NCBI GenBank assembly: GCA_021734065.1
Contig: JAIPJQ010000001.1
Span: 19,251 to 83,250 of the forward strand
From: Fidelibacterota bacterium
GTDB lineage: Bacteria; Fidelibacterota; UBA8477
DNA: 64,000 bases
Direction: 5' to 3'
Shown here: piece after piece, positions 16,796 through 29,321 of the stretch
Layout of the letters: the number at the start of each line of letters is the position of its first letter
How positions within the stretch are numbered: the stretch's first letter is position 1
The notes under the pieces: model-generated
Told to the model about the DNA's origin: nothing
Database searches by the model: none
Seen by the model: the letters and a program-made list of their open reading frames with translations, nothing else
Translations under genes and position numbers: made by a program

Positions 16796-16827
16796 AAAAA
16801 AACCCCGGGCATTAAACCCGGGGTTTT
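16796..16827. terminator. bidirectional intrinsic terminator between the BNR gene and icd
   Basis: AAAAAAA-CCCCGGG-cattaaa-CCCGGGG-TTTT. It has a perfect 7-bp GC stem flanked by an A-run and a T-run, and sits between convergent stops at 16769 and 16854. Confidence 0.75.
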
Positions 16828-16853: not shown

Positions 16854-18245
16854 TTACATGTTCTCAATCAGGGCAGTCCCAAATTCAGAACATTTAACTT
16901 CAGTCGCACCCTCCATTAAGCGGGCAAAGTCATAGGTAACGACTTTGCTGGCAATAGTCTTAGACATGGAGGCCAGGATCATATCTGCGGCTTCTGTCCA
17001 GCGCAGGTGCTGCAACATGAGCACACCGGAGAGTATTACCGACCCCGGATTGACTTTATCCAGATTGGCATATTTCGGTGCGGTGCCATGGGTTGCTTCG
17101 AAAATGGCGTGACCACTTATGTAGTTAATGTTGGCACCGGGTGCGATACCAATTCCACCAACCTGGGCCGCCAGTGCATCAGAGATATAATCACCGTTCA
17201 GATTCAATGTGGCAATCACCTCGAACTCACGGGCGCGAGTCAACACCTGCTGCAGCGTAATGTCCGCAATCGAGTCCTTGATCATGAGTTTGTTCTTCCA
17301 CTGACCATTGCCGTGTGTAGGCATTAAAGTCAATGTAGCCGCCACTTCATCGCGAATTTCAGCCTGTTTGTCGGGCGCCATCATGTCATAACCGGGATCA
17401 ATTTTACGGGCATTTTCTTCCACAGACAATTCGGAGTTACGGTCCTGATTATCAATAATCCATGATTCCCGCTGGGTGACGACCTGGTCACGATAATCAC
17501 GGACGGCCACATCATATCCCCAGCTCTTGAAGGCACCTTCAGTGAACTTCATGATGTTCCCTTTATGAACCAGATTAACCGATTCCCGCCCATTGAGCAG
17601 TGCATATTCAATGGCGGCTTTCACCAGGCGTTCCGTTCCCTCTTTGGAAACCGGTTTAATACCAATGCCGCTGGTTTTGGGGAAACGGATGTTTTTCACG
17701 CCCATTTCATTCTGAAGAAAATCGACAACTTTTTCTACTTCGGGACTGCCTTCAGCCCATTCGATACCGGCGTAAATATCTTCCGTGTTTTCCCGGAAAA
17801 TCACCATATCCACATCTTCAGGTTTGACTACGGGTGAAGGAACACCGTCAAAATAGCGTACAGGCCGTAGACAAACATATAAATCGAGAATTTGTCGCAA
17901 GGCTACATTCAGCGAGCGAATGCCGCCACCGATGGGCGTCGTCAGCGGCCCTTTGATTCCCACCAGATATTCCTTGAAGGCATTAACGGTATCATCCGGC
18001 AGCCATTCTCCGTATTTTTTGAATGCTTTTTCGCCGGCATATACTTCAAACCACTGGATTTTTCGCTCACCGCCGTAGGCTTTTTCTACCGCAGCATCCA
18101 AAACACGCTGGGCAGCGCGCCAAATATCCGGACCCGTGCCATCACCTTCGATGAACGGGAGTATCGGTTCATTGGGAACCGTAATTTCACCATCCTTGTA
18201 GGTGATTTTCTCGCCCGCTGTTGGTGTTTGTAAATGTTTAAACAT
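16854..18245 (-). CDS. icd: NADP-dependent isocitrate dehydrogenase (homodimeric type)
   Basis: 463 aa. Motifs [43 protein letters not shown], and a C-terminus [29 protein letters not shown] nearly collinear with enterobacterial Icd. Confidence 0.92.
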
Positions 18246-18281
18246 GAGACTTCCCCTTTTCCAATCGCTTCTGTTCTATGG

Positions 18282-18617
18282 TTATTTCTTTTTTTCTGAT
18301 GTTTTGCTGCTTCCGGAATCAATCTGGTTACTGCTTGATTTTTCGGCAGCAGGCTTGGATTCCTTTGCCGGTTTTTCTCCATTACTGTTACTCCCGGCAC
18401 CAGAGCTGCTCTTTTTCGAGTAATCGGTGATATAAAATCCGGAACCTTTAAATATTAATCCGGTACCGCCACTCAATAGTCGCCGGACTTCGCCCCGGCC
18501 CCACTCTTTCTCCTCACAAATCCCAGTCGGGCAGATGGTCAGCGGGTTATCAGTCATTCGCTGAAATACTTCAAATCGCCGACCACACTTTTTGCATTCA
18601 TAATCATACGTGGGCAT
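18282..18617 (-). CDS. FmdB-family zinc-ribbon protein with Ser/Lys-rich tail
   Basis: 111 aa. MPTYDYECKKCGRRFEVFQRMTD...LTICPTGIC is the FmdB/CxxC-CxxC pattern. Confidence 0.8.
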   Translation of the reverse strand: MPTYDYECKKCGRRFEVFQRMTDNPLTICPTGICEEKEWGRGEVRRLLSGGTGLIFKGSGFYITDYSKKSSSGAGSNSNGEKPAKESKPAAEKSSSNQIDSGSSKTSEKKK

Positions 18618-18663
18618 TTATTCAGTATCCTCCAACTGCTTTACAATCCATTTTAACAAATAC

Positions 18664-19647
18664 TCAGTCCGCTGCCTGAAGGCATGCCACGGCTGCCACG
18701 TTCACAATATCTGTATATTTACACCCCCGGGACAGGTCATGCATGGGCTTCGCCAATCCCTGTACAAAGGGACCTAATGCTTCAAAGCCACCGAGTCGTT
18801 CCGTGAGTTTATATCCAATATTCCCGGCATCCAGATCCGGGAATATAAGCACATTCGCGTTTCCAGCTATACCGCTATGGGGTGCTTTTTTCTTGCCCAC
18901 TGCCGGGACAATGGCGGCGTCTAATTGCAGTTCACCATCCACCGCCAAATCCGGTGCGTTCTCCCGCAGAATATCCAATGCTGCCAATACTTTGTCCACA
19001 TCAGGATGCCTGGCGCTGCCCATTGTGGAAAAGCTCAGCAGTGCGACCCTGGGTTCACTGGCGATCAATTTTCGGTACGTCTCCGCCGTGGACATGGCGA
19101 TATCAGCCAGTTGTTCAGCGGTTGGTTGTGGGATAATGGCGCAATCGCCAAAACCGAAAATATGTTCATTATCGGGGCTTACCATGATAAATGAGCTGGA
19201 GACCGTCTTGATGCCGGGCTGAATCCCAACATTTAAAATAGCAGCACGAATCACATGGGAGGTGGCATGTGCCGCACCCGCAACGCATCCATCCGCAACG
19301 CCATGACGCAGCATCATGGCACCAAAATAAACCGGATCGCTGGTGAGCTCCAGCGCCTGGGATTTTGAGACCCCCTTGTGCATCCGGCGCTGGTAAAAAT
19401 CTTCCGCCCAATTTTCATACTGCTCATGATCCGTGGGTGCAAAAACCGTTAGTCCGTCCAAACTGACACCGGCGTCGTTTGCGGCTTGACCCACTTCGTA
19501 TTTTTTCCCCAATACTGTGACAGCACAAATCCCCTTGTCCACCAACTCGCGTGCTGCTTTGAGTGTACGTGGATCAGCACCTTCCGGCAGCACAATATGC
19601 TTGCTCAGACTGGCCGCCCTGGCCTGAAAATCCTGTGTTAATGTCAT
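18664..19647 (-). CDS. pta: phosphate acetyltransferase
   Basis: 327 aa. PTA_PTB-type sequence: [38 protein letters not shown] and [16 protein letters not shown]. Confidence 0.9.
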
Positions 19648-20138
19648 GATCGCTGCTCTAATTTTTCTTTCAATTTTTTAACCACATAAGCGGACACAAA
19701 TGGTGAGACATCACCCTGGAAGGTGGCCACTTCCCGCACCACTGTGGAATTGAGGTGGGTGTAGGCTTCATGCGGCATTAAAAATACCTGTACCATGTCG
19801 GGATACAGGGTGCGGTTGACCAGTGCCATTTGAAATTCATACTCAAAATCGGACATGGCCCGCAATCCCCTGATCATGGCCTGCGCCCCGGTCTTTTTCG
19901 CGTAATCCACGATTAAGCCATCAAAATTATCCACCTGCACACCGGGTAAATGCCGCACCGACTCCCGGATCATATCCATCCGTTCCTCAACGCTGAATAA
20001 CGGCTGCTTCCCGATGTTCCTGGCAACAGTCACCACCACTTCATCGAACAGGAAAGCTGCCCGTTCAATGATATCAACATGTCCCAGCGTAATTGGGTCG
20101 AAGGTCCCCGGATAGATCGCCCGTTTCACATTATTCAT
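19644..20138 (-). CDS. coaD: pantetheine-phosphate adenylyltransferase
   Basis: 164 aa. [18 protein letters not shown] and [12 protein letters not shown]. Confidence 0.95.
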
Positions 20139-20680
20139 GCATTTCCTCGTGTGTAAAAATGTAGCATGCTATCCCCCATCTTTTTCGATTTATACAGCGT
20201 GATCCCCAAATCATCCTGCATTTCAAATTCCGCGCGCTGTCCACATTCGTATACCAGCCAGCTATTACTATTCAAATGCCGGACCAGTTGCGCCCAAAAG
20301 GAGCTGCCTAATTCCAAGTCATAGGGTGGATCCAGCAGAATCAGGTGAAATTCCTTTTCAAATTTGGTGAGAAATTTCCCAGCTTCCATGGCGAAGGAAT
20401 CAAATTGATTCTGAGCATCGTGAGTCATGATCCATTCCCTTTGCTGACGGAGATAGCCAGCCCGCTTATCCACTGATGTGAGGTGACGGGCACCACGCGA
20501 CAATGCTTCGAATCCCAGACTTCCGGTACCGCTGAAAAGGTCCAACACATGAAATTGGGACAAGGGAGGCAATGTATCAAATAAAACAGTACGGGTACGA
20601 CTGCTGGTGGGGCGCACCGGGCCACGATGTAATACGGGTAACGGATGTCCTTTCCAATGACCGGCGATAATCCTGCTCAT
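20135..20680 (-). CDS. rsmD: 16S rRNA (guanine966-N2)-methyltransferase
   Basis: 181 aa. RPTSSRTRTVLFD, DLFSGTGSLGFEALSRGA and ILLDPPY. Confidence 0.85.
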   Translation of the reverse strand: MSRIIAGHWKGHPLPVLHRGPVRPTSSRTRTVLFDTLPPLSQFHVLDLFSGTGSLGFEALSRGARHLTSVDKRAGYLRQQREWIMTHDAQNQFDSFAMEAGKFLTKFEKEFHLILLDPPYDLELGSSFWAQLVRHLNSNSWLVYECGQRAEFEMQDDLGITLYKSKKMGDSMLHFYTRGNA

Positions 20681-21898
20681 TTAGTCGTATCGAATAAGCG
20701 TGAGATTGACAACGGATTCAAAACCGTTCGCACCCTGTTGAATGGTCAGGTCATTTAAAATGAAATTTATGGGCAATTGACTCCAATGCTCCAAAATCGC
20801 ACGCATGACCCAGTGATTACCCGTAACCATAATTTGCACCGGGTTTGCATCTATTCCCCCATCGAGTTCGGTGATGATGTGGCTGATGTAATGATGGAAC
20901 GGGCCAACCAGTTTTTCCAGGATGAAATGGATATCACCGGTTTCGGGTTCATAGGCACGCGGCACCTCAATAATATATTGAAACCTACCACTGATCGTGA
21001 ATCGGTCGGGTTGATCGGATTCGTGCAAAGGTCCATCTGTAACCGGACGAATGGTTGAGAGAACCGATTCGCGCACGCCCTGTTTACCATTGTCAGTTTC
21101 CAACTCGAGACGATTACGGTCAAGATAAAGATGCGAGCGGCCACCGGATTGATTCAAAATGCCCACCAGATTGGCAGCCAGCTGAAACATGGTCTGGTTC
21201 GTGACGACCAGGGAATCCAGATTTGTGTAATGTCTCATGGGCGGTGTTGAATCAATTTCTGCCGTTACGGTGTCCGTGTCATTCAATATTGTTGTTACCG
21301 TATCCTCCTGGGATTCAATTTTTTCTTCCACTATGTCCTGATCTTCCGGATCGCTTACCCCGGGGCGGGTCTCTCCGCTGTCCGGTACTGCCGCTGCCTG
21401 TGATGATGTAAGGGTATCTTCATCGGTGGTGCTGATGTAGGAAGGCGCTGGTAAAAATTGTTCAAAAATATCCTGCGGAAGAACCGAATCCGCTAAGACA
21501 GTATAAAGGCTGTCCTCTATGCGCAGGATTTCCAGTGAATCCAACAGGAAGGGGAAATCAGTTCGCTCACCCGTAGTATCGGCAGTGTCTGCCACCGCTG
21601 GGACGGGCTTGAATTCAGCAATTATTGGATCCAGCGTGCCCTGTTTATACAAAAACCCCAGCACAATGATAATCGCCAGAGCACCCAGAACCACAAAAAG
21701 TCCTTTTACGGATTCTTTGGGTTGATCAACAACCGGTGGGATTGGTGGAGGTTCTGGTTTTCTGGTATTGGACTTTGCTGCTTTAGAATCGTGATCGGCG
21801 CGTTCAATCTGCGTATCGGTCCGGAGATTGGGAGCCACGCGCTCCTGGAATTCCTGTGGATCCAGTAATCCCTTATCCTTAAGAAGATCAATCTTCAC
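20681..21898 (-). CDS. hypothetical bitopic membrane protein, PilN-like N-terminus (function uncertain)
   Basis: 405 aa. The GTG start overlaps the upstream stop by 11 nt. The extreme N-terminus KIDLLKDK resembles the PilN INLLP peptide. A Pro-rich stretch (KPEPPPIPPVVDQP), one TM helix (LFVVLGALAIIIVLGFLY), an acidic low-complexity linker and a ~190-aa C-terminal domain follow. Confidence 0.55.
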   Translation of the reverse strand: MKIDLLKDKGLLDPQEFQERVAPNLRTDTQIERADHDSKAAKSNTRKPEPPPIPPVVDQPKESVKGLFVVLGALAIIIVLGFLYKQGTLDPIIAEFKPVPAVADTADTTGERTDFPFLLDSLEILRIEDSLYTVLADSVLPQDIFEQFLPAPSYISTTDEDTLTSSQAAAVPDSGETRPGVSDPEDQDIVEEKIESQEDTVTTILNDTDTVTAEIDSTPPMRHYTNLDSLVVTNQTMFQLAANLVGILNQSGGRSHLYLDRNRLELETDNGKQGVRESVLSTIRPVTDGPLHESDQPDRFTISGRFQYIIEVPRAYEPETGDIHFILEKLVGPFHHYISHIITELDGGIDANPVQIMVTGNHWVMRAILEHWSQLPINFILNDLTIQQGANGFESVVNLTLIRYD

Positions 21899-22826
21899 GA
21901 AAGCGCTCCCGGATCACGCTGCTGATACTTCCCAGTAGCTCGGTGTACTGGCTTCCATTCCGGATTTTGCTTTCTCGCAGATGAAATACCTGTGTGGGAT
22001 TGAAGAGCGAAACTTCCGGTCCCCTGAGCAGCCGCTCCCACCGATCCAATTCTAACGGACGTCCATATAGATAGGTATGATCCACCGGACTGGTACGACG
22101 CGGGTTCCCTTTCAACAGCGTATGCAGAAAAATGATGATACGATCAATATCCGCCCAGTCGCCCCGGAGCACGTCAAATCCAATCCCACTGTTTTTCCCG
22201 ATGGAAAAATCCGCTGTCCCGGTTACTTCACCCCGATCAATCTGAATCATGTGGTACTGTACGCCTTCACAGCCGATTAAAAGCGTACGCTCCAAATGGC
22301 GGATATGACCGGCGTAGGATAACATATCCACTGCAGAGAGACTATCCAGTTCCACCCGGCTGAGGGTTAGTCCGGCTTTATCAAATCCAATATGAAATGT
22401 CTGACGAAATTCTTCCGGGATGGCTACGGTGAAATAGTGTAAGTAATGCGTATCATTCCGTCCATACAGACGCTGATGGACCATCTGAAAATCACGATGA
22501 TCCAGGTCGTATGCTTCATGAAATTGCCAGTTCAGGAATTTTTCCCGATCAGCGCCGGGAAGCTCTGTATCCACCTTTTGAAACATATGGGGAAACCAGC
22601 GGCTCTCCACCACAGCCATTGCCTGGCGATCGGGGAAATCCACCTTCGATTTGATTTTCTCAACGATCTCAGTTATTTCATACCGAATATTGGTGCGCGA
22701 CCAGCGACTGGGATTCATATCCACCTGGGTAGAAAAGTTACCCAGCGCTTCAATATATGGTAAACCCTGATAGTCTACCAGTTGTGCGTAACGCACCAGG
22801 CCATCTGTAAATTGTGTACCGATCAT
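21888..22826 (-). CDS. PilM-like (actin/FtsA-fold) protein, probably nucleotide-binding-deficient
   Basis: 312 aa. By-eye collinearity with type IV pilus PilM covers four segments. These are IGTQFTDGLVRYAQL (N-terminal strand), REKFLNWQFHEAYDLDHRDF (the WEAExYIP region), FTVAIPEEFRQTFHIGFDKAGLTLSRVELDSLSA, and C-terminal YTELLGSISSVIRE. Confidence 0.55.
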   Translation of the reverse strand: MIGTQFTDGLVRYAQLVDYQGLPYIEALGNFSTQVDMNPSRWSRTNIRYEITEIVEKIKSKVDFPDRQAMAVVESRWFPHMFQKVDTELPGADREKFLNWQFHEAYDLDHRDFQMVHQRLYGRNDTHYLHYFTVAIPEEFRQTFHIGFDKAGLTLSRVELDSLSAVDMLSYAGHIRHLERTLLIGCEGVQYHMIQIDRGEVTGTADFSIGKNSGIGFDVLRGDWADIDRIIIFLHTLLKGNPRRTSPVDHTYLYGRPLELDRWERLLRGPEVSLFNPTQVFHLRESKIRNGSQYTELLGSISSVIRERFRED

Positions 22827-22858
22827 GGGGAGCGGTTACCCCACTCGTTTTAGGTTAA

Positions 22859-25066
22859 TTAGTCGTTTGACCAGCTTAATTCGCCATCAATGATGCGCCC
22901 GGCCGTGGTATCAACCTGTGTGAAAAAGAGGTTCCGTCTGGTTTCCACCGATTGACCTTCCAGGGGCGATTCAATTCTCAAGTTCACCTGATTGCGAATA
23001 GTTACGCGAAATGGAAGCCCGGTTACCGGACAGTGTTTCATATCCGCGACCAGTCTATACGGGTATTTCTTTTCAATTTTTGTGAATTTCTTTGCCACCA
23101 TAGTATCCAGCCAGGTGGCGAATGAATCTTTCGCCATAATGATGGATTTTTCCTGAATGCCTACAATAAATCGTGGTGACACAGACGTATACAGTGATGC
23201 TGTGGTATCTTCAAGAGCTGTAAACTGGTAAAGCCCCATGAGCACACTGTCCACCGTGAAGTGCACCACATAGGAATTCTCTCCCAGGTGCGCACGCTCG
23301 GTGCGGGTCGCTTCACCGATTTCCGCCACAAAATACTCCCGGACAGAATCAGCCATGCCAGCCTGGTAACGCAGTTCTCCCGTCGGACCAGAAGCGATAA
23401 AGGGAATCTCGACCGGGTCAGTAACCTCTGCCAAAGGCATTGTACCACGAGAATAAATACCGATGAATGAACTATCGGAAAATTCGATGACAGTATCCTT
23501 TGTGTTAACAAAAATTGAGTCATATAAGGTCGTATAATCGGGTTTTACTGATACATCCACGGTGACGGTATCGGGATAAATCACATGTTCTCCCATAAAG
23601 TCTGTAGTATCACTGGCGGCCATCTGTGTCGTAGTTTGCACAATATAATTCGTATGGGTATTTACATTGCTGAATTTACCGGTCAGCGCTTCGTACAATT
23701 CCATATTCATGTCATCATACATCCGTAAGACCCGACGAGGGACATTCACATTATACTGATCCTGTGGTATGGCGTAGACCTGCCAATCTACCTGATCATT
23801 ACGTTTCCGCACCGTATCAGCCACGAGTTCCACCAAATGAATTGAAGCTTCGTCTTCATCCACCCCAATAAGCCGCGGGGCTAACTGGACATAAATATCC
23901 TTGTTGATCTTGATCTGGTTCAGCGCGATACTGGGACCAATATTTACCGTGAAAACAATGTCACTCAAATCCAGCGTGACCTTCTTGCTTCCCATGAATA
24001 TCGGGTTACTGTTGAGCGAATCGGAAACAATGCTCAGCAACCTCCGGGCAATTTCTTTATGCGGTTCTTTATACCCACCAGAAATGTCTTTATAGAGCGT
24101 GTTTAGTCGCTCATCCAGCCCTTTTTGCATGTTTTCAATGTCAACGGTTGCTGAAAGCGTTATCTCCTGCCCGGTCGAATCCGTTACCGGAATATCCAAC
24201 CCGACGGGAATTTCACTTAAAGCGAGTACGCGTTCCACAGCCTCATCATAGATTGATTCACCATAGGTCAGCGAGTCTTCAGAATCGAATTTCACATGCT
24301 TGCGTAATTTGATTTTGGTTTTTTCCAGCAAATCCGGGAGGGTCGGTGCAACCGTGTACTCGAAGGTGATGGCCTCATAGAGATTTGGGAAACTTACCTC
24401 TCCCCGCAAACCCTCATTAGCCAGGACCGTATCCATGACCGCCTCCACCAACGGATTCGCGAAGGATTTGTCCTTGGTGGCAGATCCGGTTAACACATTG
24501 AACATACGGAACTTACCATTTTGATACAGGATATCGAACCGTTCAGGAACATGGAATCGCAAACTGTCTTCGCCGATCTGCATGGTTTGTTCACCCACGA
24601 AGTTGCCCTCTTCAAATCGTGCCCGGACAAGTTCAATAAATTCGGCAACACGCTCCGCCGGTAGATAATGGCTGGGATTCAGCGCTTCATACAATTCACG
24701 ATGCAATTCGGTATAGCGTCCTTCATACTCAGGTGTGTAATGGATTACTACCGAATCCTGGGGAAAGACAAACCGCTTTTCTCCGACAAAACTTTGACCA
24801 GAATCAGCTTGCGCGCTTCGAACGCTGTCATAGACGCCATTCACGACGTTGAAAAGGACATCCAGATCGGGTGTGTATGATTCGGATAAAACATAAAAAG
24901 CCTTTTCAGCCGTGTTTATCGCAACCATGCGTTCTCGCGCAATATCCCGCAAATCGGCTTCTTCATTCCAGATTTTTGTGGGTAACCAAATCACTGCGAT
25001 GAGCATGAGAACCAGCAGAACGATAACAATCGTGTTAATCGTATGGACGGTATTCTTGTCAGCCAC
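22859..25066 (-). CDS. hypothetical signal-anchored 735-aa envelope protein
   Basis: GTG start preceded by GGGAGG. There is a single N-terminal hydrophobic helix (TINTIVIVLLVLMLIAVIWL) and then a long soluble region with no motif I recognise. Confidence 0.65.
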   Translation of the reverse strand: MADKNTVHTINTIVIVLLVLMLIAVIWLPTKIWNEEADLRDIARERMVAINTAEKAFYVLSESYTPDLDVLFNVVNGVYDSVRSAQADSGQSFVGEKRFVFPQDSVVIHYTPEYEGRYTELHRELYEALNPSHYLPAERVAEFIELVRARFEEGNFVGEQTMQIGEDSLRFHVPERFDILYQNGKFRMFNVLTGSATKDKSFANPLVEAVMDTVLANEGLRGEVSFPNLYEAITFEYTVAPTLPDLLEKTKIKLRKHVKFDSEDSLTYGESIYDEAVERVLALSEIPVGLDIPVTDSTGQEITLSATVDIENMQKGLDERLNTLYKDISGGYKEPHKEIARRLLSIVSDSLNSNPIFMGSKKVTLDLSDIVFTVNIGPSIALNQIKINKDIYVQLAPRLIGVDEDEASIHLVELVADTVRKRNDQVDWQVYAIPQDQYNVNVPRRVLRMYDDMNMELYEALTGKFSNVNTHTNYIVQTTTQMAASDTTDFMGEHVIYPDTVTVDVSVKPDYTTLYDSIFVNTKDTVIEFSDSSFIGIYSRGTMPLAEVTDPVEIPFIASGPTGELRYQAGMADSVREYFVAEIGEATRTERAHLGENSYVVHFTVDSVLMGLYQFTALEDTTASLYTSVSPRFIVGIQEKSIIMAKDSFATWLDTMVAKKFTKIEKKYPYRLVADMKHCPVTGLPFRVTIRNQVNLRIESPLEGQSVETRRNLFFTQVDTTAGRIIDGELSWSND

Positions 25067-25079
25067 GGAGCCTCCCTAC

Positions 25080-25505
25080 CTATTCGGCGCTGATAATCTG
25101 TGAATTTTTCTCGAACATCTTTGTCCCGATCCCCTTCACCTTCATCAAATCCTCGATTTGAGTGAATGGTCCATGCTCAGAACGAAAGTCTACAATGCGG
25201 CTTGCAAGGGTCGGACCAATTCCCGATAACTGCTGCAGAGTGGCAGCATCAGCCTGATTGATATTAATGTTACCATCGGTTGCCAGTTTTTCGCCTGACG
25301 TCGGTTCGGTACTCGCAGCATTTGAATTCAATTCATGGCTGACTGCCTGAAATGTCGACATTTCCTCGTAAACACTGGCCGTTTGAATCTGAAGGACAGG
25401 AGATTGTTGAATCTTCGTCCATCGCACCACCCCACCTGCCAGAAGCGTGACACCAAGGAAAAGTAAGACCATCCGTTCCTGGGAGGTAAAGTTTGTAAAA
25501 ACCAT
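25080..25505 (-). CDS. comEA: ComEA-family DNA-binding protein (helix-hairpin-helix)
   Basis: 141 aa with an N-terminal TM helix. The C-terminus ININQADAATLQQLSGIGPTLASRIVDFRSEHGPFTQIEDLMKVKGIGTKMFEKN is a tandem HhH domain. Confidence 0.85.
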   Translation of the reverse strand: MVFTNFTSQERMVLLFLGVTLLAGGVVRWTKIQQSPVLQIQTASVYEEMSTFQAVSHELNSNAASTEPTSGEKLATDGNININQADAATLQQLSGIGPTLASRIVDFRSEHGPFTQIEDLMKVKGIGTKMFEKNSQIISAE

Positions 25506-26656
25506 TACAGTACCGATTTAATCTTTCTGAAAAGTCCGGAGCCTTTTTGGGGTTGGCCGTCAAGTTTGGCCAGCGTTTCATAAAGCTCTTTTTCCTCGCG
25601 GCTGAGTTTTTCAGGTGTTTTTACCTGCACTTTTACTAATTGGTCACCAACATAATGACTGTTTAGACGCGGTATGCCTTTATTTCTCAGTCGTAACATC
25701 TTTCCCGATTGAATCCCGGCTGGTATTTTCATATTCACTTTGCCGCCCAGTGTGGGGATTTCGATTTGATCACCCATCACTGCCTGGGGTATGCTGATTT
25801 CTACTTCCAGGAGAATGTCATCACCATCCCGGATAAAAATATCGTGTTCAGCCTCTTCGATAAGAACAATGAGGTCGCCTCGTGCGCCTCCCTGTTGCGG
25901 AGCATTACCCTCTCCACGCATGGTAATATAGTTACCGCTCGTCACACCGGGGGGAATATTTACACTTATTGCAGTCGTGCCTTTAACGCGCCCCTCGCCT
26001 TCGCAAGCCCGACAGCGGGTGCTCGGGATTCTGCCTTTCCCACCACAACTGGTACAGGGACGAACATTCACGAATTGCCCCAGAATAGAGCGCTGAACCT
26101 GACGAATTTCGCCCATACCCTGACAGGTGGGGCAAGTCCGTAATTCGCTTCCGGGTTCGGCTCCGTCGCCACCACACTTCTCACAGGTTTCCCAGCGGCG
26201 TACTTTCAGCTTTTTACTCGCTCCGGTGGCAATCTCTTCCAGCGTAAGTTTCAACTGGATTTTCAGATCACTCCCGCGATGTTGCCGTGCACCGTGCCGC
26301 TCACCACCACCAAAGAAGTCTCCGAATCCGCCGAAATGACCACCAAAAATATCTCCGAATTGCTCGAAAATATCATCCATGGTCATCCCACCGCTGAATC
26401 CACCTCCAAATCCACCTCCGGTGCCACCGCCCTGCATACCCGCATGCCCAAATTGGTCATATTGGGCGCGCTTGTTCTCGTCATTCAGAACGGCATACGC
26501 TTCAGCCGCCTCTTTGAACTTCGTTTCCGCGGTTTTATCACCAGCGTTTTTATCGGGATGATATTTAATGGCTAATTTGCGATAGGCCTTCTTGATCTCA
26601 TCTTTGCTGGCATCGCGGGACACACCCAATACTTCATAATAATCTCGTTTTGACAT
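25505..26656 (-). CDS. dnaJ: molecular chaperone DnaJ
   Basis: 383 aa. It has a J-domain with KYHPDKN, a G/F-rich region and four CxxCxGxG repeats ([32 protein letters not shown]). Confidence 0.95.
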
Positions 26657-26670
26657 ACTACCTAACTCTG

Positions 26671-27315
26671 TTACTCACTGACAATGACTTTTGCGTGCCG
26701 CAAGATGCGATCGCCCATTTTATACCCGGGCTGAAAACTTTCCACAACAATACCCGAATCACCATTTTCTGCCGGACGGGTCATCATGGCATCATGAATA
26801 TCCGGATTAAATGGCTCGCCGGTAGGATCAAAACGTTCCACGCCCACATCCTGCAAATACTTCAGGAATCGTTCATAAATCATACGAATGCCAGTTTTAT
26901 GTGAATCTTTTGTATCGTCCTCAGCCTCCTGTTGCTGAGTTCCGTCGCTATCAAATTGGGCTGAACGCTCCAAATCATCCAACAATGGCAGGAGCTCACG
27001 GATCAGATTTTCCCGGGCAAATTTGAGTGCCCGGTCAAACTCACGCTCCTGACGCTTCTTCATGTTTTCAAACTCAGCCACAACTCTTTTCATTCTGTCT
27101 TCCGCCAGAATTTTCGCTTCCAGCGCTACCGTCAGTTCTGTTTCAAGCGTGGTAATTTTACCTTTCAGCTTTTCGATTTCCTGCTCAGCGGCTGATTGTT
27201 TTTTCTTTTTATCTTTGGTTGACTTGGCTTTTTTACTTTTACGGGTGGATGCACGATCCTGCTCCACCTGTTCACCATTTGTTTCTTTGATCTGCTGCTC
27301 TTTTTCAGAGGTCAT
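26671..27315 (-). CDS. grpE: nucleotide exchange factor GrpE
   Basis: 214 aa. Coiled-coil N-half, then [12 protein letters not shown] and FNPDIHDAM...[14 protein letters not shown]. Confidence 0.93.
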
Positions 27316-28367
27316 TCGAGTATTTCCACTCCTATGTTTTTTCCTACTTCATCGGCTGTATACTCAACCAGACCACAAATTTTATCATACGCCATTCGTG
27401 TCGGTCCCAGGATATGGATACTGCCTTCCATAAATGGGTTACGATATTTTCTGGATACCAGGGAAAATTGTTTTAACGCAGAGAGGCCGATTTCACCACC
27501 GATCATAATGCGTGGATTACCGCTGATGTGCGTGGTGGGAAGTAATTGGTAAACACGCCCCTCCTCAACCGCTTCCAAAACCGGCTCAATTTCACGCGAA
27601 TCTGCGAATTCAGGATATTGAATAAGCTGGTGCGTACCGTAATACTTGTATTCCGTATTGGTGAGGCTGCGAAATATTTGAAAGGCATTATCCAGGATCT
27701 GACGAACAAAATGGTATTCAGAACTGAGCTGAGGTAGATTTTCGCTCTGGGTATCGTCAATTTCAGATAACATACGCCCCACGAACAGATCCCGCAGGAT
27801 GGTTTCCGCCTCCTTAAGCAGTCTCGGTGACAGCCGGCTATCCACCTGCAACGCGGCGGTTTTCAGCGGACCGGAAGTCATTTGTACCACGATTAGCACG
27901 CGTTGACTACTCAGTTCTACCAGATTGATATCCCTGACCCGGGCACCGAGATAGCTTGGCAAACTGATGAGCACCAGCGCCGTTGACATTTCCCCTAAAA
28001 AATGACTCGTCCTATCAATGAGCATCTCCAGGTCACGGGCGAACTGATGCACTAAAGCTTCCAGCTCGATCTGTACATCCCGGCCTGGCGTCTGCATCAT
28101 CATTAAATGGTCCACATAAAATCGGTAGCCTTCCTCCGTGGGAATTCGACCGGCAGAAGTGTGGGGATGCGTTAAGAGACCCTGGGATTCCAGACGAGAT
28201 AAAATGTTGCGAACGGTTGCGCTGCTGACTTTCAAATCGGGTAATTCGGACAAACTGCGCGAGGAAACCGGTTGTCCGTCCTGAATGTAGTTTTGAATCA
28301 CGTAATACAGGATCAGACGTTCCCGTTCTGACAGTGTTTCAAGCCTATTCATTACCCGTTCCGTCAT
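27312..28367 (-). CDS. hrcA: heat-inducible transcription repressor HrcA
   Basis: 351 aa. N-terminal winged helix ERERLILYYVIQNYIQDGQPVSSRSL..VSSATVRNILSRLESQGLLTHPHTSAGRIPT, and HrcA-length C-terminal domains. Confidence 0.9.
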   Translation of the reverse strand: MTERVMNRLETLSERERLILYYVIQNYIQDGQPVSSRSLSELPDLKVSSATVRNILSRLESQGLLTHPHTSAGRIPTEEGYRFYVDHLMMMQTPGRDVQIELEALVHQFARDLEMLIDRTSHFLGEMSTALVLISLPSYLGARVRDINLVELSSQRVLIVVQMTSGPLKTAALQVDSRLSPRLLKEAETILRDLFVGRMLSEIDDTQSENLPQLSSEYHFVRQILDNAFQIFRSLTNTEYKYYGTHQLIQYPEFADSREIEPVLEAVEEGRVYQLLPTTHISGNPRIMIGGEIGLSALKQFSLVSRKYRNPFMEGSIHILGPTRMAYDKICGLVEYTADEVGKNIGVEILE

Positions 28368-28375
28368 GGCTCGGG

Positions 28376-28404
28376 AAAATAATTTTGACCCTCTCGGAGG
28401 TCAA
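28376..28404 (-). promoter_or_regulatory. candidate hrcA promoter overlapping a 20-nt inverted repeat
   Basis: The minus strand reads TTGACC (28404-28399), a 17-nt spacer, TATTTT (28381-28376), 8 nt, then the ATG at 28367. The -35 box is one arm of the inverted repeat TTGACC-N8-GGTCAA (28385-28404). The same hairpin could instead terminate ftsX. Confidence 0.35.
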
Positions 28405-28448
28405 GGTATAAATCGGTAAATGACTGATAGTTGGGCGTTTATTCGGGT

Positions 28449-29321
28449 TTATACAACCAGGTAGATAAAGCGGCGTACCGCCCGGTAACTTCCCAGAATT
28501 CCCAGGATAATTCCGGTACCCAGAAGTATTAAAATGACCTCGGGAAACTGAATGAGTCGTGAGGCAAGATTCAGGCTGGTAAGCTTGATGACGCTCTCCT
28601 CAATCCCATGGATTGCCCCCATGGCCAGAACAGCGCCTAAAAATCCCTGAAAAGCGCCCTCCACCAAAAAAGGTGCACGAATGGTAAAATCAGACGCGCC
28701 AATCAAACGCATGGTCTCAATCCAGTCAAACCTGGCCAGAATAATCAATTTGATGGTATTGGAGGAAAGTAGAACAGCGGCTATAAACAAAACCAGCAGA
28801 AAAATTCCACCCACCATAGTCAGAATGCGCAGAATGGAGGTAAGTTTTAAAAACAGGGCTTTGTGAAAGGTGACGGTTTCCACGCCGGGCAATTGCTCCA
28901 AGCTGGCGGTAAACCCCGAAATATAGCCGGTATTCTGATGGTAGCGGTCAAACCCAATGCGCACAGATGGCGGGAATGGATTGTCCTGCAGAATCTCGAA
29001 GATATTTTCGCCAAACTCTTCCTGGAAAACAGCGATGGCTTCGTGTTTTGAAATGTATCGTGTGTAGACAACGCCGGGATAGGTATTACAGAATTCCAGA
29101 GCTGCCGCCTGCTGGTCACGGGTAGCATTGGGATTGTAAAATAGCTGAACATCGAAATCAGCCTGCAGATTCCGAAAATAGCTGAAGACATTATCTCCCA
29201 TCACAATGCTCACACCGATGAGGGTGAGGCTGATGGCGATGGTGACCACCGATACCACGAAAGGATATTTGGCGCGGGAAAATCCACTGAATCCTTCCCG
29301 AAAAATGAATCCCAGGTTCAC
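28449..29321 (-). CDS. ftsX: cell division ABC transporter permease-like protein FtsX
   Basis: 290 aa. One N-terminal TM helix, a periplasmic domain and three C-terminal TM helices. It lies directly downstream of ftsE with a 4-nt overlap. Confidence 0.85.
   Translation of the reverse strand: MNLGFIFREGFSGFSRAKYPFVVSVVTIAISLTLIGVSIVMGDNVFSYFRNLQADFDVQLFYNPNATRDQQAAALEFCNTYPGVVYTRYISKHEAIAVFQEEFGENIFEILQDNPFPPSVRIGFDRYHQNTGYISGFTASLEQLPGVETVTFHKALFLKLTSILRILTMVGGIFLLVLFIAAVLLSSNTIKLIILARFDWIETMRLIGASDFTIRAPFLVEGAFQGFLGAVLAMGAIHGIEESVIKLTSLNLASRLIQFPEVILILLGTGIILGILGSYRAVRRFIYLVV

Follow-up and report, generated by a model that had tools for sequence, protein, structure and literature searches.

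A candidate motor-less derivative of the type IV filament platform encoded between dnaJ and rsmD in Fidelibacterota

Type IV filament machines are defined by a motor ATPase, a platform protein and processed pilins. Among the described systems closest to the locus considered here are the PilM-PilN-PilO(-PilP-PilQ) assemblies of Thermus thermophilus, Myxococcus xanthus (3jc8) and Pseudomonas aeruginosa. PilN's initial eight residues are the peptide that PilM binds; PilN-PilO and PilMNO-pilin contacts have been reported for Thermus, and the cytoplasmic domain of GspL has been described as an actin-like homologue of PilM (PMC6325625). Our locus lies in a window of 64,000 nucleotides from a Fidelibacterota bacterium (the window being the whole stretch of DNA that was analysed: assembly GCA_021734065.1, contig JAIPJQ010000001.1, positions 19,251 to 83,250 of the forward strand), which corresponds to contig C12 of an assembly (genome G000) with a size of 2.5 Mb and a completeness of 82%. 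Source names of close homologues place the organism in Marinimicrobia (= Fidelibacterota, SAR406). Four co-directional minus-strand genes are found there between dnaJ and rsmD: comEA, and three that we call X, M′ and N′. Two questions related to these genes are: (i) from what X, M′ and N′ descend; and (ii) whether they still serve a pilus or the uptake of DNA. We suggest that the trio descends from a type IV filament machine and forms a motor-independent inner-membrane complex with a constitutive role in the envelope, a reading whose chances we put at about even. Because the trio is kept in genomes of about 1 Mb that have neither a pilus motor nor a DNA-uptake channel, it probably no longer builds a pilus.

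According to the list of open reading frames (ORFs), comEA and X are 13 nt apart, X and M′ are 32 nt apart, and M′ overlaps N′ by 11 nt. The start of comEA overlaps the dnaJ stop by 1 nt, the N′ ORF abuts rsmD, and base composition is even across the four-gene region. A first-pass annotation, made from the letters of the window, had given the same four genes, strand, spacing and flanks, and the ORF list agrees with it exactly. It had also held the domains to be too divergent for routine annotation, and X, M′ and N′, taken alone, indeed have no match in Pfam or NCBIfam. A phmmer search among the genome's own ORFs found no paralogues of the four proteins.

Conservation of the locus was followed in a phylum sample of 61 genomes, with a wider search for M′ in 301. 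The array hrcA-grpE-dnaJ-comEA-X-M′-N′-rsmD-coaD(-pta) is kept in the families inspected, comEA being missing in family f11. Some 20 families of the phylum share this gene order, as does at least one further candidate phylum, and the four genes are therefore real genes and not chance ORFs; conservation of the order in related metagenome-assembled genomes (MAGs) was a check that the first-pass annotation had proposed. An early, weak M′ profile gave a single-copy match in 167 of the 301 genomes (69 of 104 genera) and missed 11 of the 61 sample genomes. All 11 have X (E down to 1e-82), so that X is present in 61 of 61. When missed genomes outside families f11 and f4 were re-examined, M′ was recovered in all four (G006, G017, G030 and G051), and among the missed genomes inspected, G002 excepted, M′ or a fused M′N′ was found in six of six. 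Between families, identity is 33-40% in the X core, a level comparable to that of GrpE or RsmD, and 19-27% in M′; N′ can hardly be aligned. In more than 60 loci inspected, the cassette was never beside an ATPase, platform or secretin gene and contained no PilO, PilP or PilQ, a PilN-like gene alone following M′. In the literature on Marinimicrobia PilM and on orphan ComEA-PilM-PilN, we found no description of the cassette.

M′ (312 aa; positions 21888..22826, minus strand) is, judging from profile comparisons, a remote but genuine homologue of PilM. Its close relatives are few: a set of 5.8 billion clustered proteins yielded six, and one of 1.8 billion proteins yielded 16 clusters (50% identity). 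All are 276-322 aa long. A profile of 21 M′ sequences had one significant PDB family, which is M. xanthus PilM (3jc8, E 9e-10). Three of the 21 reach Pfam PilM_2 (PF11104), and these three are positional orthologues, located in ftsE-ftsX-hrcA-grpE-dnaJ-HHH_3-X-PilM_2-N′-rsmD-coaD arrays. Within the phylum, PilM_2 matches the syntenic gene of G001 above the curated cut-off (42.1 bits summed) and that of G020 below it (24.9 bits). When 51 M′ orthologues were aligned by hhalign with 24 canonical PilM proteins of the same phylum, the match had a probability of 98.2% (E 4e-14) over 299 columns, end to end, and it was still 97.1% (E 7e-11) with the PilM_2-positive lineages removed. Such alignments are weak for close M′ homologues against a single PilM, and convincing with diverse orthologues and a PilM family alignment.

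We propose that the M′ family no longer binds nucleotide. M′ is predicted to be cytoplasmic, and the ASKHA motifs are degenerate: the column of the phosphate-1 Asp holds S, H, A or Q across the family (Q5 in the window), and the GG position of the adenosine motif holds S or G followed by H, S or R (G255-R256 in the window). The M′ profile has no similarity to the genome's own MreB and FtsA (probability <0.3%), whereas a canonical PilM profile reaches 94% in the MreB/FtsA comparison, a difference that fits the loss of shared nucleotide-binding motifs. The Bacteroidota family DUF3822 (PF12864) was considered as an identity for M′ and, at the level of a direct HMM comparison, rejected, its HMM having no match on the M′ gene in the 61 phylum genomes and one unrelated match there (E 4.5e-4). 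No GspL family is among the Pfam matches of M′ and N′ members at E values up to 1. On a JGI contig of P0019, a 303-aa PilM_2-positive gene stands alone between the HHH_3 gene and rsmD, with X and N′ not called; M′ can thus occur alone.

N′ (405 aa; 20681..21898, minus strand) is supported as a PilN-like protein by its N-terminal motif, a single predicted transmembrane (TM) helix and a PilN/PilO-like C-terminal domain. It starts MKIDLLKDKG, and the first eight residues (MKIDLLKD; 21875..21898, minus strand) form a putative PilM-binding motif of the PilN type. About 40 non-identical positional orthologues start M(I/V/K)(R/K)(I/L/V)(N/D)L(L/A)..(P)G, as in MIRINLL, MIRLNLA, MVKVNLL, MISVNLL, MKINLL and MPEINIM, which is the same motif as in the canonical PilN proteins of the phylum (...IKINLN, IRINLLG). 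After the motif comes a variable acidic or Pro-rich linker, then one TM helix and a periplasmic domain. In the window protein the linker is Pro-rich, charged and predicted to be cytoplasmic, the helix spans residues ~66-84 (21647..21703, minus strand; hydropathy maximum 2.7 at residue 66), and the periplasmic domain spans residues ~230-405 (20681..21211, minus strand). Searched against the PDB, the N′ profile has its best match in PilO of M. xanthus (3jc8); this match is marginal but specific (E 7.3e-4) and covers the final ~90 profile positions. Among N′ members, one matches Pfam PilO at E 0.013 and none matches Pfam PilN (PF05137). In some families N′ is only 104-130 aa long and consists of motif, linker and TM helix, the C-terminal domain being missing.

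Fusions join the two genes in at least four families, of which f4 is a probable case. In families f19 and f15, a single ORF of 573-606 aa encodes both M′ and N′; in it, an INLF-type motif directly follows the M′ domain and is itself followed by the TM helix. In family f11 the ORF (463-474 aa) matches M′ less strongly (E 3e-7 in one copy out of two) and has one TM helix and no recognisable motif, and a 375-aa ORF in family f4 is a probable fusion in which the motif is present and the M′ match is marginal (E 0.01). Because M′ and N′ are fused into one ORF in several families, functional coupling of the pair is supported, the fusions serving as a natural 'Rosetta stone'. The first-pass annotation had named the 312-aa and 405-aa proteins PilM-like and PilN-like, and both assignments are supported by these comparisons.

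X (735 aa; 22859..25066, minus strand) is unusually long in the window, since its orthologues in most of the phylum have 250-265 aa. Domain mapping with jackhmmer matches residues 1-130 (24677..25066, minus strand) and ~605-735 (22859..23254, minus strand) to the two halves of the ~250-aa orthologues. The N-terminal core contains a TM helix continuous with a long helix, and the C-terminal core ends ...CPVTGLPF...ESP...GELSW. Between the two lies a lineage-specific insert of ~470 residues (aa ~131-604; 23255..24676, minus strand) that the 250-aa orthologues do not have. A self profile-profile alignment gives offsets of ~130 aa at probabilities of 89, 82 and 73%, and the insert apparently consists of about three extra copies of the ~130-aa core unit, these internal repeats being the reason for the length of 735 aa. 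An independent expansion to 709 aa is seen in G002 (family f4), and a 331-aa intermediate is seen in family f8.

X appears to be pilin-derived, which the first-pass annotation had overlooked. With moderate confidence, we regard it as descended from a pilin, no longer subject to cleavage, and retained in the membrane as a bitopic protein, N-terminus in and bulk periplasmic. In Marinimicrobia, Fidelibacterota and KSB1, 'hypothetical' is the sole annotation given to the family, and X has no Pfam match, N_methyl included; a match of one member to GspL_C (E 0.14) is noise. In the window protein, Pro29 stands in the register of pilin Pro22, with V7 at -1 and T12 at +5 in place of the Gly and Glu of a prepilin. 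The Pro is invariant in Marinimicrobia, where some families keep E5 (LLEL...) and G-1 is gone. KSB1-type relatives (homologues named 'candidate division KSB1', and related 'bacterium' MAGs) start KGS(I/L)(I/L)(Y/L)(E/K)LLIV......YP, with Gly-1, Glu/Lys+5 and Pro+22 in exact register, and have a C-terminal CP...(~22)...CP pair like the pilin D-region; the assignment to KSB1 is taken from source names that close X homologues carry. Since G-1 is lost and E5 usually lost in the phylum, cleavage by prepilin peptidase is not expected. An AlphaFold 2 (AF2) model of a 263-aa orthologue, from 36 sequences, has a predicted local distance difference test (pLDDT) score of 87, and contains a 57-residue N-terminal helix (residues 22-78), a second helix and a beta-rich domain with very long hairpins.

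The place of comEA in the locus suggests a different scenario, in which the four proteins ComEA, X, M′ and N′ act jointly as the receiving station of transformation at the inner membrane, using PilB, PilT, PilC and secretin encoded elsewhere and delivering DNA to ComEC. The comEA product (141 aa; 25080..25505, minus strand) has a predicted N-terminal signal-anchor helix and a tandem helix-hairpin-helix (HhH) DNA-binding domain. It matches Pfam HHH_3 (E 1.6e-22) and passes the cut-off of TIGR00426, the ComEA HhH region (68.7 bits; cut-off 53.1), in keeping with its first-pass identification, and scores 69 bits with the full-length model TIGR01259, below the cut-off of 152. The gene is translationally coupled to dnaJ, X follows within 13 nt, and the order comEA-X-M′-N′ is found in most families and in KSB1-type genomes. 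No PilB, PilC, PilQ, PilT or prepilin is among the ORFs listed for positions 17000-29000, the part of the window covered. The rest of the genome, where the first-pass annotation had proposed to look for comEC and pilus genes, has both on other contigs, with totals of six T2SSE matches, three PilC genes, two secretins and a ComEC (C166, E 5e-67); ComEC is present in 53 of the 61 sample genomes. There is also a precedent in Thermus, where PilMNO is part of the DNA translocator (PMC6325625). The sole other strong HHH_3 carrier in the window genome is a 615-aa protein (C43:96-1940) with an S1 domain-like C-terminus, which resembles a Tex/YqgF-type transcription accessory protein and not a second ComEA.

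We nevertheless consider the transformation scenario unlikely, while giving it a better chance than the other alternatives, because the trio is kept where the remainder of such a system is gone. Family f11 comprises three genomes of 0.9-1.1 Mb that are 97-99% complete. Their locus reads dnaJ-X-(fused M′N′)-rsmD with no comEA (G024 and G043 inspected), and in all three genomes there is no HHH_3 anywhere, nor ComEC, PilM_2, T2SSE, T2SSF or secretin. In G055 (97% complete), ComEC is absent and comEA is shortened, yet X and M′ are kept together with an N′ of 126 aa; competence may have decayed there independently with X and M′ retained. The G055 comEA (contig C16, L110, 6156-6509) ends inside the second HhH hairpin and, compared with the family, has two in-frame stops. 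In G017, a genome on a single contig, comEA-X-M′-N′ and ComEC are present and T2SSE ATPase, T2SSF/PilC and secretin are absent. Nor is X expected to be cleavable or polymerisable in the phylum. Finally, comEA stands at the dnaJ-X position in most families, but dnaJ, rsmD and coaD are equally constant neighbours; since comEA is not conserved beside the trio any better than dnaJ or rsmD, its adjacency has little functional weight. On gene content, the conserved unit is X-M′-N′, and not ComEA-X-M′-N′. The first-pass annotation had proposed a minimal PilM-PilN-like platform, linked to ComEA, for DNA uptake or pilus alignment, and in this it is not supported: family f11 keeps the trio without ComEA, ComEC, PilB/PilT, PilC or secretin, the link to ComEA is no firmer than that to dnaJ or rsmD, and conventional pilus clusters have a PilM and PilN of their own.

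Such clusters are present in the window genome. A type IVa pilus cluster (C25:8895-16216) encodes a pilin with GFTLIE, PilT, two minor pilins, a 585-aa protein that is PilY1/PilC-like or of no known kind, PilM (E 2e-47), PilN (starting MINVIKINL), PilO and a PilP-like protein, and the contig ends where pilQ would be expected. A second cluster (C76) has pseudopilins, a PilM-like protein, a PilN/O-like protein and a secretin, and a third (C123) has T2SSE, T2SSF and secretin genes. Beside the latter, at C123:20959-23712, a 917-aa ORF matches PilM_2 in its middle part (E 1.7e-12), and PilM-fusion ORFs of 570-1000 aa like this one occur in related genomes. Because the genome has its own PilM/N clusters, the cassette is not needed to supply PilM and PilN to those systems.

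A related scenario, which we regard as improbable, is that M′ and N′ are a spare alignment subcomplex for a conventional PilB/PilC pair, of a type IV pilus or type II secretion system, that has no PilM/N of its own. ATPase/platform sets (C157, C72 and C123, plus PilT on C25) do outnumber PilM/PilN clusters (C25 and C76), C123 also carrying the 917-aa PilM_2-like fusion protein, and GspL-like M′-N′ fusions exist. However, the contigs are fragmented and the 'extra' ATPase sets may belong to the clusters on C25 or C76. Across genomes, the presence of M′ is independent of that of T2SSE, T2SSF and PilM_2; in the nearly complete genomes G004, G010 and G022, for example, the cassette is present and a canonical PilM is not. 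The cassette is also single-copy and fixed in a housekeeping operon, away from any ATPase, platform or secretin gene in the >60 loci. That the trio is a functionless relic, decaying pilus genes trapped in an operon, would account for the lost ATP site of M′ and cleavage site of X and for an N′ that is extremely divergent and reduced to 104-130 aa in some families, but is highly improbable, given that the genes are intact, single-copy and without internal stops in all sampled genomes, including streamlined ones of 1 Mb, that the X core is conserved at housekeeping level, and that the fusions preserve reading frame and motif.

The preferred reading, a motor-independent complex of X, M′ and N′, can be put in mechanistic terms. 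M′ would be a cytoplasmic PilM-type protein with an actin fold that has lost nucleotide binding, and, as the motif and the fusions suggest, it may be tethered to the membrane by gripping N′ at its N-terminal (I/L/V)(N/D)L(L/A) peptide. The TM helix and periplasmic PilN/O-like domain of N′ may pair with X, by analogy with the PilN-PilO and PilMNO-pilin contacts mentioned above. X, being uncleaved, would be anchored in the membrane and not polymerised. The conserved role would then be that of a constitutive envelope component or scaffold and not filament assembly. In genomes that have ComEA and ComEC, such as that of the window, the complex may in addition position ComEA at the inner membrane; since the trio is retained where ComEA is missing, this cannot be its essential role.

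Several points weigh against this reading. The AF2 model of the window M′, built from a six-sequence alignment, has a pLDDT of 48, only residues ~170-275 being confident (with a beta-beta-beta-alpha-beta-alpha-beta pattern), so that the actin-like fold is predicted from homology and not from the model. For the C-terminus of N′, the resemblance to PilO is of marginal significance (E 7e-4). Matches of the X profile to the pilin alpha-1 helix are not significant (PilA 8tj2, E 0.43; geopilin, 0.81; GspG, 2.1; all sub-threshold), and Foldseek comparison of the X model with the PDB gave no match to a pilin or any other structure better than E 0.5. With weak profile matches and no PDB match, the pilin descent of X rests on N- and C-terminal motifs in distant relatives. 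With respect to function, the position of comEA directly upstream in most families and in KSB1 could reflect a real functional link, and only one clade, family f11, clearly keeps the trio after losing ComEA and ComEC, G055 being a weaker second case. 'Envelope scaffold' is, moreover, a default reading.

It is possible to go further, although we do so only tentatively. An uncleaved pilin, a nucleotide-free PilM and a PilN may have been exapted in Marinimicrobia/Fidelibacterota and KSB1 into an undescribed constitutive envelope machine, for example a trans-periplasmic strut or organiser, that has no ATPase, PilC, peptidase or secretin and persists in genomes reduced to 1 Mb. That the trio is universally retained, in reduced genomes too, speaks for a function not yet described. 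If these suggestions are true, a phylum-universal pilin/PilM/PilN trio that outlives the other pilus and competence genes would clearly exemplify the exaptation of pilus parts, and a function would be gained for three 'hypothetical' proteins of aquatic bacteria that are abundant and mostly uncultured (SAR406/Marinimicrobia; relatives in KSB1). PilM-PilN coupling through the N-terminal peptide, as read from the motifs, could outlast the loss of nucleotide binding by hundreds of millions of years. For genome surveys of these phyla, the practical implication is that comEA beside pilM-like genes is not to be scored as evidence of natural competence.

The surroundings of the cassette are those of a housekeeping locus. 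Upstream of dnaJ (25505-26656, minus strand), the hrcA-grpE-dnaJ genes are contiguous (26671-28367), with no dnaK between grpE and dnaJ, and rsmD (20135-20680, minus strand) is at the other end of the cassette. In related loci ftsE-ftsX lies directly upstream of hrcA, and the array from ftsEX to pta is syntenic throughout the phylum and in KSB1-type genomes. A scan for promoters and terminators found no terminator-like site that clearly marks an operon boundary between hrcA and a hairpin at 16799-16827; this hairpin is the strongest (12 bp, 7 G-C), and site counts are not above those in shuffles. A search of RNA-seq runs for the window sequence returned only four DNA metagenomes from lake water.

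How, then, does the locus compare with known systems? With the PilMNO(PQ) assemblies, the cassette shares a homologue of the actin-fold PilM, a bitopic partner with an (I/L)NLL-type motif in its first ~8 residues, a putative periplasmic domain of PilN/O type, and genes that are adjacent and overlapping. It differs in having no PilO, PilP, PilQ, ATPase or PilC, and in the loss of the PilM ATP-binding motifs. M′ falls ~40 aa short of PilM, and N′, which includes a long linker that is acidic or rich in Pro, has double the length of PilN. Persistence in genomes without any pilus genes is a further difference, and in the window genome the cassette coexists with the separate canonical PilMNO(P) clusters on C25 and C76.

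GspL (EpsL/XpsL) and MshI of the MSHA pilus combine a PilM-like domain, a TM helix and a PilN-like domain in one chain, as do the fusions in families f19, f15 and f11. In the EpsL structures, the GspL cytoplasmic domain is not known to bind nucleotide. The M′-N′ cassette, in contrast, has no Pfam GspL or GspL_C match and no GspE, GspF, GspM, GspC or GspD partners, and the f19 and f15 fusions carry the PilN peptide between the two domains. The ComEA of Bacillus subtilis, Vibrio cholerae and Thermus is like the window protein in its membrane-anchored or periplasmic tandem HhH DNA-binding domain; the window protein is short by comparison, falling below the TIGR01259 cut-off, and its gene is in the hrcA-grpE-dnaJ operon and not beside comEC.

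Finally, X shares with type IV pilins and pseudopilins (PilA, GspG, ComGC) a long hydrophobic N-terminal helix with a Pro in the position-22 register and, in the AF2 model of the 263-aa orthologue, the order of secondary structure (alpha-1, short helix, beta sheet, C-terminal loop), and its KSB1-type relatives share in addition Gly-1, Glu/Lys5 and the C-terminal Cys pair. Unlike pilins, the X proteins of the phylum have no G-1, usually no E5 and no N_methyl match, their globular domain is unmatched in the PDB, and the window protein reaches 735 aa through internal repeats. Set beside all of these systems, X-M′-N′ is best read, on the strength of its motifs and gene content, as an orphan offshoot of the type IV filament platform that does without a motor.

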